Positions 1,930-16,443 of a stretch of 16,673 bases of DNA are shown here, one piece after another. Below the pieces are notes generated by a model that worked only from the letters and a program-made list of their open reading frames with translations, ran no database searches and had not been told where the DNA came from. The translations under genes and the position numbers were made by a program. The stretch comes from a virus: the UHGV virus genome UHGV-0183032; one strand, written 5' to 3'. How positions within the stretch are numbered: the first letter of the stretch is position 1; the number at the start of each line of letters is the position of its first letter.

Positions 1930-3241
1930 CGTTTTCCTCTTCCAGTTCTACCTCACTAGCCGGGCCATCGTATCCGGCAGCTTCGCGGATCTCGTCACCG
2001 CTGAATATTTCCTCACCAGTAGCGAGACATGCCTGATTGATTTGTGCCATTTTGTATGCCGCGTCGAGTAGCTCTGCTTTTGTCATGGCGTTAAGGTCGT
2101 CCCACAGTACAGATACGTCTACTGGCATACTGATAAGGCGGAGATCTGCCATCTTGCGGAATAGCTCCTCAAGCTCACCTCCTATTTCCTCACGGCGGGT
2201 CATGCAGCGGTTATTGAAGTAGCGGAGGTCTTCGGTTGATGCGCGTTCGCCCTGCTGATTCCCAACCAGGATACGCGTTGGAATATCGATACCAGCGGCT
2301 GCGGTTTGCAGGTTGACGTCATAGGTAGCGGAAGGATCTGCTACGGCAGTAACCAGCGGGCTAACGGTAGCTCCCTGTAATGCCATCATCACATCATTAC
2401 CTTTATTTATATCCTCTGCCGCTTCATTGAATTTTTCGCGTAGCTCTGTAACGTCGCAACCGTATGTTGCAGCCAGAGAACGGAAATCAATTTCTTTATC
2501 GAACGAGATAGCCAGTTGACGTGCTGCGTTTTTCAGGAATGATTCACCGCTGCCGCCTTCCACTTTCTCCAGTGAAACGAATGCGTTATAGGACGGTTCA
2601 AGGAAAGCGATGGCATCATCAGAATAATCACCGAAGATAAATATGCGATCTGGATGTATCTTTCTTGCTATGGTCTTACTGTTAATGCGCTCCTTGTATT
2701 CCCACCATGTAGGCAGGCCATAGTTTTCTTTATCCGGGTTTTCTTCGAAGTCCTTCGGTGTAAGAGCACCAGCCCATACGGGGGTAAATTTGGCAATGCC
2801 TACGCCTTTTGTTACTGGCTGATCCCACGGCTTGTTATCCCTGACGTGAATTAACAGTCCAGCATAACGACCGATGAGGCGGCGGCGATCGCATTCAGCA
2901 ATTACGCGCCAGAATCTATTGTCGAATCGTTTTTTGATTTCTCTTTCCCACGAAGTTTCCTTTTCCGCTTTCTCGTCTTCCGTACCTTCAATCAGCGTTG
3001 GCCTGGTGCGCCAGCACGTAGTAATGATCTTCTCAATAGCACCGTGAGCGATACCACCGCGACGATACAGTTTGTATAAATCGGCATAGGTGATTTCTTC
3101 TTTGAATCCGTATTCACTCCACGCAGCATCACGTTTTGCATCAATACCCATTGAGAATGGGTTAGCGGCTGCATAGCGGGCAAAGGCCGCCTGGCGTTGT
3201 GACAAGGCAGCATTAACCGCCAATTCTAAATTGGATGGCAT
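1871..3241 (-). CDS. Portal protein
   Basis: About 456 aa with an acidic C-terminal tail, positioned between terminase large subunit and the Mu F-like gene. Start chosen at ATG 3241 (AGGAG 8 nt upstream) rather than the track's upstream ATG at 3262. Confidence 0.85.
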   Translation of the reverse strand: MPSNLELAVNAALSQRQAAFARYAAANPFSMGIDAKRDAAWSEYGFKEEITYADLYKLYRRGGIAHGAIEKIITTCWRTRPTLIEGTEDEKAEKETSWEREIKKRFDNRFWRVIAECDRRRLIGRYAGLLIHVRDNKPWDQPVTKGVGIAKFTPVWAGALTPKDFEENPDKENYGLPTWWEYKERINSKTIARKIHPDRIFIFGDYSDDAIAFLEPSYNAFVSLEKVEGGSGESFLKNAARQLAISFDKEIDFRSLAATYGCDVTELREKFNEAAEDINKGNDVMMALQGATVSPLVTAVADPSATYDVNLQTAAAGIDIPTRILVGNQQGERASTEDLRYFNNRCMTRREEIGGELEELFRKMADLRLISMPVDVSVLWDDLNAMTKAELLDAAYKMAQINQACLATGEEIFSGDEIREAAGYDGPASEVELEEENDDECEEDNQANTSSRDNAI

Positions 3242-8118: not shown

Positions 8119-8130
8119 AGATTTTCCTCC

Positions 8131-8160
8131 AACAAAGCAAAAACCCGGCGCGGGGCCGGG
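8131..8160 (-). terminator. Intrinsic terminator on the minus strand, directly upstream of the holin RBS (tR'-like)
   Basis: Minus strand reads CCCGGC-cccgc-GCCGGG followed by TTTTTGCTTTGTT: 6-bp GC stem, 5-nt loop, U-tract. About 13 nt separate it from the holin RBS. Confidence 0.6.
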
Positions 8161-8188
8161 TAATTACAATTTCGCATTGTTAGGAAAT

Positions 8189-8217
8189 ATTTTAATCTGT
8201 TTGTTTACGCCCTACAA
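8189..8217 (-). promoter_or_regulatory. Candidate sigma70-type promoter (late promoter P_R'-like) upstream of the terminator
   Basis: Minus strand TTGTAG, 17-nt spacer, TAAAAT; would give a roughly 50-nt leader ending at the hairpin. The -35 element is weak. Confidence 0.3.
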
Positions 8218-8224
8218 ATACGGC

Positions 8225-9880: not shown

Positions 9881-9902
9881 GATTACACCCTTCTGATTTG
9901 AT

Positions 9903-9918
9903 GGGGCCATCCGGCCCC
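9903..9918. repeat. Perfect GC-rich hairpin (GGGGCC-atcc-GGCCCC) in a 43-bp intergenic gap
   Basis: 6-bp all-GC stem with 4-nt loop. A U-rich run follows on the plus strand (GTGTTTTAT), not the minus strand. Confidence 0.5.
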
Positions 9919-9923
9919 GTGTT

Positions 9924-10074: not shown

Positions 10075-10353
10075 TTATGCCATACGTGCGAATTCAAGTG
10101 ATTTGCATTCGTAGTCTTCCTCTGCCTGTTCGATGACTGCCATCATCATTTCGTTTGCGTTGTTGAATGCGTTGCTTTGTGCGAACTTGTCGGCTCCACC
10201 TTCTTCTTCGAACTCCGCGTTGTTTGCTGCAATGTAGTGATATTCGATGTTGTTCAGGTAAGGGCTTGCAGCGTGTGCTGGGTCTTCTTTCTCCACCATC
10301 TCCCAAAATGCGTTTAAGCGAGATTCGACTTCTTTGTTAATCCAGCGTTTCAT
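10075..10353 (-). CDS. Hypothetical acidic protein, 92 aa; first gene after the predicted 10.4 kb promoter
   Basis: ATG 10353 with GGAGGG about 9 nt upstream; acidic composition (EFEEEGGAD, EQAEEDYE). Confidence 0.65.
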   Translation of the reverse strand: MKRWINKEVESRLNAFWEMVEKEDPAHAASPYLNNIEYHYIAANNAEFEEEGGADKFAQSNAFNNANEMMMAVIEQAEEDYECKSLEFARMA

Positions 10354-10388
10354 TTTTCTACCCTCCGCATCGTTCTCTCTTCAGCTTC

Positions 10389-10417
10389 TTTATAACAAAA
10401 TGGCACTGCCGAAACAA
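10389..10417 (-). promoter_or_regulatory. Candidate sigma70 promoter with extended -10 (minus strand)
   Basis: Minus strand TTGTTT, 17-nt spacer, TGt-TATAAA. Predicted start near 10382, about 30 nt before the RBS of the 10353 gene. Confidence 0.35.
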
Positions 10418-10425
10418 TGCCATTT
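10397..10425. repeat. Inverted repeat AAATGGCA-N12-TGCCATTT overlapping the candidate promoter (operator-like)
   Basis: Perfect 8-bp arms with 12-nt spacer. A GCCATTT-type motif recurs in the 16.4 kb and 6.8 kb gaps. Confidence 0.45.
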
Positions 10426-10434
10426 CGTAAACCT

Positions 10435-10450
10435 TGTGATACAGATCACA
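10435..10450. promoter_or_regulatory. Near-consensus CRP-type binding site (TGTGA-N6-TCACA)
   Basis: TGTGATACAGATCACA with flanking TT...TTT, matching the core of the Enterobacterial CRP consensus. Centred about 60 bp upstream of the predicted start. Confidence 0.4.
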
Positions 10451-10451
10451 T

Positions 10452-10676
10452 TTACGTTTCTTCCGTAAAAGTAACCTTCATCGCCCCATCCGAACTACGG
10501 ACAACATAACGACCAATACCGCCTAGCGGCCCTGCATACCATAAGTGACCGTAAGTGTCAGTCACGACGATAAACGGAAATTTAGGAGACAATCCCATCG
10601 GTTTTTCAGCCGTGTACTGTACGCCTTCCTCAAAACAGCCCAATTTCGATTCGTTACACGTTAAAATCATTTTCAT
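10452..10676 (-). CDS. Tandem small-protein family member D, 74 aa
   Basis: ATG 10676 overlaps the stop of member C (ATGA). Motif CFEEGVQY...IVVTDTYGHLWYAG. The track's longer Cys/Trp-rich form starts upstream and overlaps member C. Confidence 0.55.
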   Translation of the reverse strand: MKMILTCNESKLGCFEEGVQYTAEKPMGLSPKFPFIVVTDTYGHLWYAGPLGGIGRYVVRSSDGAMKVTFTEET

Positions 10677-13420: not shown

Positions 13421-13725
13421 TGCTCGACCCACCTTAACATCCAATTCACATCACATTTAATTGCGAATACTCTCACCGGATCAGTGCCGAATAATGGATG
13501 TGTGATAGTTTTCACTTCGTACCCAAAATAAGGAAGGTTAATAATCCTGTGTTTTTCGTGGTTGGCAGGGTATCCCCATTTAATAATCAGGCGCTCATAT
13601 TCCCGCCCTTCCAGACGTTTACGCCAATAGTCATTATAAAGCCGGTATTCCTCCACCTTCTTTCCCGCCCGGATAGCGTGGAAATATTCCCCTTTCAGAT
13701 TCAAATGCAGGTCTTTACTTGCCAT
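13417..13725 (-). CDS. Possible ASCH/PUA-like fold protein, about 102 aa
   Basis: Start chosen at ATG 13725 (AGGA 8 nt upstream); the track start at 13761 is TTG. N-terminus LHLNLKGEYFHAIRAGKKVEEYRL resembles the ASCH/DUF3850 signature from memory. Confidence 0.5.
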   Translation of the reverse strand: MASKDLHLNLKGEYFHAIRAGKKVEEYRLYNDYWRKRLEGREYERLIIKWGYPANHEKHRIINLPYFGYEVKTITHPLFGTDPVRVFAIKCDVNWMLRWVEQ

Positions 13726-13990: not shown

Positions 13991-14177
13991 CGTCACCACG
14001 CTTGTAAATTTTTACAGGCTTAATAGGGATGGCGGGCAATTCGCCTTCATTTAACGCGCTTGCCATACCCAATATTAAGCGTGCTTCAGCACCAGTGACC
14101 TTCTTACACCATGCGCCGCCTGTTTTATCTTCGAATAAGATAACGGCAAACTGATCGTTTATTTCCAGCTTATCCAT
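13977..14177 (-). CDS. Hypothetical protein, 66 aa
   Basis: ATG 14177 lies 1 nt from the stop of the Q-like gene. Confidence 0.6.
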   Translation of the reverse strand: MDKLEINDQFAVILFEDKTGGAWCKKVTGAEARLILGMASALNEGELPAIPIKPVKIYKRGDDDEA

Positions 14178-14905
14178 TATTCACCCCGTGTCACTCGTTT
14201 GATTTCGCTTTCCGCGCGGGCCTCTTCTTTGAATAGCTCCGCTATGGCGTCTTCATAGAAAACCCGGTATTTCTTCCACCATGTTGATCGGCTTACCGGA
14301 AAAACAAGCTGATTAACCGCCTGCCGGACGAGATCTACCGGGAAACGCGAGTACCCACGCCCGCCGCAATGCTGGCACGTTTTGAATACTGGCATTTCCG
14401 CCGCTTCGCTGGCTGCTTTATCCGGTACTTCGCCACGGCCCTTACACCGCTGGCAATGGTTTTTAACGTAGCCTTTGCCGCCGCACCGTGCGCAAATTGT
14501 TGATGTGTATTTGCAATATGGATTTGGTAAATGCCCGTGACCGCCGCACTTAGGGCAAACTTTTTCGGTCGCTGCACTCTGGCAGTAATCCCGAAACGCG
14601 AAAACGGAAACAAGAATAATAAGATCATTGCGTTGTGCCTCGTTTAACTCCATCACGTATTCGTAATCTTTCGCCATAGCCCTTAAACGCTCTGTAAGCA
14701 AAACTACGGCCCTGTGTTTTTCGGCTTGTGATAGTTCCATCTTCCCTAAAAAAGCGCTATATCCAAGCTCTACGCGCGATTGCGCCATACCCGCAGCGGT
14801 TAGCGCATCCGTCGTATTAAGAGCGTCCGGGGACGTGCCCCGGCTTTCGTCAGATAATCGCGGTGATTTAGGAAAGTGGAATTTTAGAATGGATTCTAAA
14901 TTCAT
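14177..14905 (-). CDS. Putative late-gene antitermination protein Q-like, with four DnaJ-type CxxCxGxG zinc-finger repeats
   Basis: 242 aa with CPKCGGHG, CARCGGKG, CQRCKGRG and CQHCGGRG. Sits after the nin/RusA module, where lambdoid phages carry Q. Family assignment is from memory of Q-type proteins of enterobacterial prophages. Confidence 0.5.
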   Translation of the reverse strand: MNLESILKFHFPKSPRLSDESRGTSPDALNTTDALTAAGMAQSRVELGYSAFLGKMELSQAEKHRAVVLLTERLRAMAKDYEYVMELNEAQRNDLIILVSVFAFRDYCQSAATEKVCPKCGGHGHLPNPYCKYTSTICARCGGKGYVKNHCQRCKGRGEVPDKAASEAAEMPVFKTCQHCGGRGYSRFPVDLVRQAVNQLVFPVSRSTWWKKYRVFYEDAIAELFKEEARAESEIKRVTRGE

Positions 14906-16284: not shown

Positions 16285-16360
16285 AATGCTCTCTCCTTTT
16301 CAGGTGATTTCTACGCATTTCAGCGCTGCCGGATTTTTAAAGAGCATTTTGTTTGCTTGA

Positions 16361-16388
16361 AGTATACAAAATGGATACGTCATAACAA
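16361..16388 (-). promoter_or_regulatory. Candidate sigma70 promoter driving the NinF-like/ninG/rusA/Q-like unit
   Basis: Minus strand TTGTTA, 16-nt spacer, TATACT, inside a 159-bp gap; predicted start near 16354. Confidence 0.35.
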
Positions 16389-16405
16389 GACGAAAAGCGC
16401 CATTA

Positions 16406-16420
16406 TGTGATCCACATCAC
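16406..16420. promoter_or_regulatory. Near-consensus CRP-type site (TGTGA-N6-TCACg), flanked by GCGCCATT/ACGCCATTTT repeats
   Basis: TGTGATCCACATCAC matches 9 of 10 core positions. Centred about 60 bp upstream of the predicted start, the same spacing as the 10.4 kb site. Confidence 0.4.
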
Positions 16421-16443
16421 GCAATGACGCCATTTTGTAAACT

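Follow-up and report, generated by a model that had tools for sequence, protein, structure and literature searches.

A probable terminator hairpin and a candidate CRP-type promoter share an intergenic gap in an mEpimmI coliphage

Class I CRP sites are positioned near −61.5, −71.5, −82.5 and −92.5 relative to the transcription start, and an extended −10 relaxes this spacing (PMC4132738). In lac P1, a 16-bp core of the form TGTGA-N6-TCAC(A/T) is followed by a 17-bp linker, a weak −35 (TTTACA), an 18-bp spacer and a −10 that keeps its final T (TATGTT); the CRP centre has been measured at −61.5, and the core promoter is weak and needs help. In phage T1, host cAMP-CRP has been shown experimentally to repress the pir, dam and recE promoters, which links phage development to sugar uptake (PMC6737242). 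Intrinsic terminators inside a long rightward operon with nut sites and an N-like antiterminator are described for lambda (tR2-tR4, nin region) and for mEp021 (t1-t5), where they lie between the early and the lysis genes. Moron-type cassettes, consisting of a gene with its own promoter and terminator, are inserted between conserved genes of temperate phages. The mEpimmI phages are Nus-dependent, non-lambdoid temperate coliphages that encode an N-like antiterminator (Gp17), three nut sites and a Q-like protein (PMC11893012). The GenBank records of this group list only ribosome-binding sites and predicted terminators, with no mapped promoters, and CRP is absent from the group's 2025 description.

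Here we describe a 98-bp gap, M1, in a 16,673-nt stretch of viral DNA (UHGV-0183032, the window) that, judged by its sequence, is an mEpimmI (mEp021-like) temperate coliphage. M1 is similar to lac P1 in its core, its 17-bp linker and its weak −35 followed by a spacer and a −10, with a candidate activator site some 60 bp before the predicted start and a weak predicted core promoter that would depend on help. It differs in having a 17-bp spacer, an extended-TG TATAAA, a start that is only predicted, and promoter DNA that doubles as a terminator hairpin. As in the lambda and mEp021 series, the M1 terminator sits within a long operon between early and lysis genes; however, its place is after the Q-like gene and not before it, a CRP-type site adjoins it, a promoter-like core overlaps it, and the type phage mEp021 does not carry it. 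Like morons, M1 is a regulatory junction between freely exchanged small genes, with flanking genes that differ among phages; unlike in morons, what is conserved is the regulatory cassette, and it is the surrounding genes that vary. As in T1, CRP would act on several promoters of one coliphage, but the mEpimmI geometry predicts activation.

The gap and its predicted elements

The region aligns in patches with Escherichia phages MagusPhagus, mEp044, mEp010, mEp554 and mEp021 at 83-87% identity. All genes are on the minus strand, so the gap follows the TAA stop codon (10454-10452) of ORF 10452..10676 (74 aa) and precedes the start codon (ATG) of ORF 10075..10353 (92 aa). As the sequence-only reading had placed it, the gap lies within an island of small genes, a run with function-less annotations between the Q-like gene (ORF 14177-14905, matching phrog_127) and the lysis genes. 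A PHROGs search with ten neighbouring proteins gave no functional assignment save the Q-like antiterminator; the product of gene 10075-10353 matches phrog_7287, of unknown function. This gene has 70-74% DNA identity with genes of virulent rV5-like myophages, and a different gene occupies its position in mEp044, mEp010 and MagusPhagus. From these comparisons the gap is best described as a mosaic junction. On the minus strand it reads TAA-A-TGTGATCTGTATCACA-AGGTTTACGAAATGGCA-TTGTTT-CGGCAGTGCCATTTTGT-TATAAA-...GGAGGG-N7-ATG, with the following elements.

10435..10450, minus strand: CRP-type palindrome TGTGATCTGTATCACA, an exact TGTGA-N6-TCACA (10/10 core match)
10420..10432, minus strand: GTTTACGAAATGG, an inverted copy of the 13-mer CCATTTTGTAWAC, left arm of the M1 hairpin
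10412..10417, minus strand: predicted −35 TTGTTT, where the hairpin DNA encodes the loop and upper stem
10395..10428, minus strand: intrinsic terminator hairpin ACGAAAUGGCAUUGU-UUCG-GCAGUGCCAUUUUGU with a 15-bp stem (G-U pairs included), from RNA folding
10398-10425: inverted repeat AAATGGCA-N12-TGCCATTT, inside the hairpin
10392..10400, minus strand: U-tract UUUUGUUAU, from sequence
10389..10397, minus strand: predicted extended −10 TGtTATAAA (TG at 10397-10396, hexamer at 10394-10389)
10382, minus strand: inferred transcription start, within about 2 nt, from hexamer positions only
10361..10366, minus strand: ribosome-binding site GGAGGG, 7 nt 5′ of the ATG (10353-10351) of the 92-aa gene

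The palindrome, which reads TGTGATACAGATCACA on the plus strand, starts one base past the stop codon of the upstream gene. It is the sole exact TGTGA-N6-TCACA in the window, where 0.02 are expected, and 4 of 200 shuffled sequences contained one. Both the perfect match and its rarity had been claimed from the sequence alone, and both hold. The textbook 22-bp CRP consensus, the only consensus used, is AAATGTGATCTAGATCACATTT; with its flanks (AAATGTGATCTGTATCACAAGG) the palindrome matches it at 17 of 22 positions and is a near-consensus CRP-type site. A 9/10 CRP-like match (TGTGATAGTTTTCACT) at 13501-13516 lies within a coding region, without promoter-like context, and is probably due to chance.

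The extended −10 sequence noted by the sequence-only reading is present and is accompanied by TTGTTT 17 nt upstream. Its estimate of about 60 bp between palindrome and start also agrees with our measurement: with the start set 7 nt past the −10, the palindrome centre (10442.5) falls at −60.5, a distance that depends on predicted hexamers only. The core has the TG, T−12 and A−11 of a promoter and lacks T−7. Among M1 variants the TTG of the −35 is invariant, and the −10 takes the forms TATAAA, TATATA, TACATA and TATATG, in every register without the final T. A consensus scan of the window for promoters and terminators listed neither the M1 promoter nor the M1 hairpin; the hairpin was probably missed because its maximal stem absorbs the T-run. 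By analogy with the recurring copies of this layout, described below, a CRP-type promoter in the gap is plausible.

Two other classes of element were considered for the gap and rejected. The gap contains no nut site: there is no boxA in 10354-10451, and nutR2 lies in another gap (16346-16314). A Q-dependent late promoter of the lambda PR′-tR′ type, in which a terminator follows the promoter within about 200 nt just before the lysis genes, is also rejected: in the gap the promoter core comes after the hairpin or overlaps it, and a gene begins some 30 nt further on. A PR′-tR′-like arrangement is better represented on the minus strand at 8119-8224, immediately 5′ of the holin gene and with the Q-like gene 6 kb upstream; it consists of TTGTAG (8217-8212), 17 nt, TAAAAT (8194-8189) and, about 30 nt on, a strong terminator at 8161-8143. 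Separately, a G+C-rich hairpin (GGGGCC-N4-GGCCCC, 9901-9920) between two small genes has a T-run on the plus strand only and resembles a terminator for antisense transcripts, not for the operon.

The probable terminator hairpin and conservation of the cassette

The inverted repeat of the gap had been called operator-like. This 8-bp repeat is present at 10398-10425, but it was under-read: it belongs to a 15-bp stem closed by a 4-nt UUCG loop and is better read as an intrinsic terminator, a reading that is well supported by sequence comparison. At the homologous element, ARNold-predicted Rho-independent terminators are annotated in three relatives: mEp044 (T7), mEp554 (T10) and mEp010 (T8). The stem is paired in 99.7% of 390 cells across 26 distinct variants, with a single cell unpaired. 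Seven stem sites vary, and at six of these the change preserves pairing (A-U to G-U, or U-G to U-A). All of these changes are one-sided; without double compensatory changes, they indicate pairing compatibility and not formal covariation. The hairpin alone folds at −19.5 kcal/mol, at least as strong as the other folded terminator-like hairpins of the window, and the fold of the whole gap has a z-score of −3.6. The first part of the U-tract UUUUGUUAU is able to pair with the upstream A-tract, so that the tract then lies partly inside the stem, as in other terminators with an upstream A-tract; its TTTTGTTA is invariant in 26 of 26 variants. Taken together, the hairpin is the most tightly conserved part of M1 and probably terminates transcription.

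An Rfam 15 search of the window and the gap gave no match at the gathering score; the sub-threshold match to mir-33 (E = 0.18) is attributed to chance. The 20-mer GGCATTGTTTCGGCAGTGCC of the upper hairpin also occurs in a 55.7-kb viral contig (L006, 11558-11577), on the opposite strand inside a 185-aa ORF and without a U-tract. This match may be due to chance, with roughly 0.2 expected in the collection.

The cassette as a whole is kept while its neighbours change. The stretch that begins with the palindrome and ends with TTGTTATA, about 75 nt long, is retained between some 10 forms of the upstream gene and 3 forms of the downstream gene, which suggests that M1 is under selection. The cassette is found in 32 of 5,426 complete E. 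coli genomes (M2, described below, in 35), and mEp021, which has a shorter island, is without it. Because the terminator uses the TTG of the −35 as stem and TTGTTATA as U-tract, the conservation of these bases is no independent evidence for a promoter.

The sequence-only reading had proposed looking for the same site at the same position in related phages; there the distal half-site stands and the proximal half does so only in part. Among 21 distinct M1 22-mers, the distal GTGA is invariant (21/21). The proximal half-site is TCACA in 9 and TCGCA, CCGCA or ACGCA in another 9, with 2 more otherwise degenerate, and in MagusPhagus it is nearly lost. The C's that mirror the G's of the distal GTGA are mostly retained, C18 in all 21 22-mers and C16 in 18. 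Across the M1 variants the distal GTGATCT is invariant in 25 of 26, and its distance to the hairpin is constant. We also considered the palindrome as a conserved RNA hairpin and rejected this, since only 77.6% of cells are paired and both inner and outer pairs are broken in 9-15 of the 26 variants.

A recurring module with a CRP-type site

The arrangement of M1 recurs in these phages. The shared layout, seen up to four times in them, consists of GTGA-N6-TCAC, a 17-18 bp linker, TTGnnn, 16-17 bp and a −10. The four modules are a putative pL, M3, M2 (before nutR2) and M1; the copies other than M1 and the elements beside them are as follows.

16285-16443, minus strand: M2 gap, the second large early gap of the window
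16431-16397, minus strand: M2 terminator hairpin, with palindrome CGTGATGTGGATCACA at its apex (16406-16421)
16388-16361, minus strand: predicted M2 promoter, after a 17-nt linker: TTGTTA (16388-16383), 16 nt, TATACT (16366-16361)
16346-16314, minus strand: nutR2, downstream of M2, with boxA TGCTCTTTAAAAA (16346-16334) and then a boxB-like hairpin
Third gap, in relatives: M3, with CGTGATTGCGATCACA, 17 nt, TTGTGA, 16 nt, TAAACT
About 3090-3140 of mEp021 (L025), leftward: putative pL, 5′ of nutL, with TTTGA-N6-TCACA, 18 nt, TTGATC, 16 nt, TAAACT

Every TTTTGT?TAWA in the early regions (3/3 in mEp044, 2/2 in mEp021 and 2/2 in the window) is preceded at an equal offset by the palindrome, in the form (C/T)GTGAT-N4-ATCACA. 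In total, 76 distinct module sequences fall into 3 types. A 20-base generic pattern for the module matched 56 IMG/VR stretches; those inspected were all module-type, on contigs mostly of 50-57 kb. The same pattern in 596 Gb of species-representative genomes gave only two matches, at the chance rate and in unrelated taxa; the module was not detected outside these E. coli phages.

Conservation within the modules is concentrated in islands. In M2, sampled via boxA only (35 distinct sequences), GTGA, TCACA, TTGT and TATCCATTTTGTATACT are close to 100% conserved. Hypervariability is seen in the inner six bases of the palindrome and in the blocks on both sides of the −35, which leave TTGT as a conserved island between them. 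In M3, sampled via its −10 region, the palindrome core survives full replacement of the inner six bases, as in TGTGACATCGTTCACA. A CRP-type dimer site would be expected to keep its 5+5 core and leave the N6 free, as seen here, and a promoter would be expected to show conserved islands at its −35 and −10. The final T of the −10 that M1 lacks is present in M2, M3 and pL (TATACT and TAAACT). M1, M2 and M3 share a 17-bp linker with lac P1, although this equal length could be inherited via duplication and not selected. Upstream of nutL the pL module is the only plausible promoter candidate, its spacer motif TCCATTTTG is shared, and equivalents are found in L023, L026 (mEp044), L037 and L061. The repressor gene, encoded on the opposite strand, has its start codon about 40 nt from the CRP-like site of pL, which overlaps a repeated word, CTTGCATCA. 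A promoter just upstream of nutR2 could explain the third nut site of these phages.

At the RNA level the copies differ. The M2 palindrome forms the apex of a long terminator hairpin, the M1 palindrome is a separate and poorly conserved hairpin, and the right half of the M3 palindrome pairs with the −35 region in some phages and not in others. A small covarying hairpin around the M2 −35, suggested by eye, was rejected, as RNAalifold gave it no support and the flanking blocks are hypervariable. Since the RNA folds differ between copies while the positions of the DNA motifs are constant, the modules look like a promoter family that acts at the DNA level.

Alternative readings and implications

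Our preferred reading, which we hold tentatively, is that the gap is a terminator-promoter junction cassette in the delayed-early minus-strand operon. In its well-supported step, polymerase arriving from the upstream small genes would transcribe the UUCG hairpin and then UUUUGUUAU, and would terminate there unless it carries the N-like (Gp17/Nus) antitermination modification. In a further step, proposed by analogy, the weak sigma-70 promoter TTGTTT-17-TGtTATAAA would restart transcription about 30 nt before the next gene, dependent on an activator dimer at TGTGA-N6-TCACA centred near −60.5. The activator would most probably be host cAMP-CRP, recruiting polymerase in the class I manner via the alpha C-terminal domain, as at lac P1. 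That the M1 promoter is active and CRP-dependent is perhaps somewhat short of an even prospect. If this step holds, a separate unit tied to carbon status would comprise the genes between 10353 and the terminator at 8161-8143. A separate transcription unit had already been proposed from the sequence alone; the repetition of the module design in the phage group makes a separately restartable unit reasonable, but the M1 −10 without its final T weakens the proposal for this copy.

That same −10, together with the proximal half-site that is degenerate in about half of the variants, would fit a terminator-only explanation. M1 may be just one of several internal terminators that, like tR2-tR4 of the lambda nin region, place downstream delayed-early genes under Gp17/Nus antitermination, with the palindrome and −10 as decaying relics of a duplicated module that no longer fires. 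The hairpin has the tightest conservation in M1, the annotation of relatives records a terminator alone at this place, and an N-like system with nutR2 precedes it in this operon. A terminator by itself would suit an N-dependent delayed-early operon of the lambda type. However, an invariant GTGATCT at an exact distance from the hairpin in 25 of 26 variants is unexpected for a dead relic, the paralogues M2, M3 and pL resemble live promoters, and the gene starts about 30 nt past the predicted start, as in M3. We consider this explanation possible but on the unlikely side. Two further explanations assign DNA in the gap to a phage protein. The promoter could be real and the palindrome bound by a dimeric phage regulator, an early activator or a Cro-like helix-turn-helix protein, that coordinates pL and the internal promoters. 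The identical position of the site in four modules of one phage group is consistent with this, as are a position 4 that is often C or A and not T, an inner T9 and A14 more conserved than in typical CRP sites, and the several uncharacterised DNA-binding proteins that these phages encode. But conservation falls precisely on the CRP core (GTGA-N6-TCAC, N6 free), and the geometry is that of lac P1. We know of no phage protein with GTGA-N6-TCAC specificity, and in cAMP-replete E. coli CRP would be expected on a site matching 17 of 22 consensus positions anyway. A phage regulator at the palindrome is improbable.

The remaining explanation concerns the inverted repeat, which the sequence-only reading had taken as operator-like. 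The repeat would act as DNA, its two arms being inverted copies of CCATTTTGTAWAC to which a phage protein binds, shutting off the promoter that overlaps them. The 13-mer has 11 matches (at most 2 mismatches, either strand) against 1.2 expected per roughly 21 kb, an approximately nine-fold enrichment; it occurs in the mEp021 (L025) and mEp044 (L026) early regions and in the window at 10420-10432, 16374 and 16430. Copies cover the spacer and −10 of pL, M2 and M3 and adjoin the −35 of a putative pR, which are promoters that an immunity repressor must control, and the 13-mer could be an operator half-site. In M1, though, the right-hand copy matches at just 9 of 13 positions. Changes in the arms preserve RNA pairing (A-U to G-U), for which a protein site has no reason, and the UUCG loop and U-tract are hallmarks of a terminator. 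Additionally, a search of the pL and pR regions for repeats found no shared operator-like repeats. We regard an operator at the inverted repeat as very unlikely.

Under the preferred reading, there is nothing unusual in the parts of M1, which pair an intrinsic terminator with a lac-type class I promoter. What appears to be new, from comparison of the modules, is the reuse by the mEpimmI group of a single promoter plan with a CRP site, both at pL and at internal restart points, of which two are joined to terminators; this plan is absent from the deposited annotation and from the group's 2025 description. Since one short gap can be both terminator and promoter, the deposited "terminator" label may be half the story. 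It is conceivable, if on balance unlikely, that mEpimmI phages wire much of their early programme, pL and three internal restart promoters, to host cAMP-CRP through lac-type class I sites, with two internal promoters fused to terminators and one feeding nutR2. If so, carbon status would directly gate early transcription, the loading of antitermination and the variable small-gene island, giving a direct molecular route for catabolite control of temperate phage development in the gut. A CRP-type design at pL and the internal restart points would link host sugar status to early phage genes and would set the variable small-gene island apart as a unit under its own regulation.
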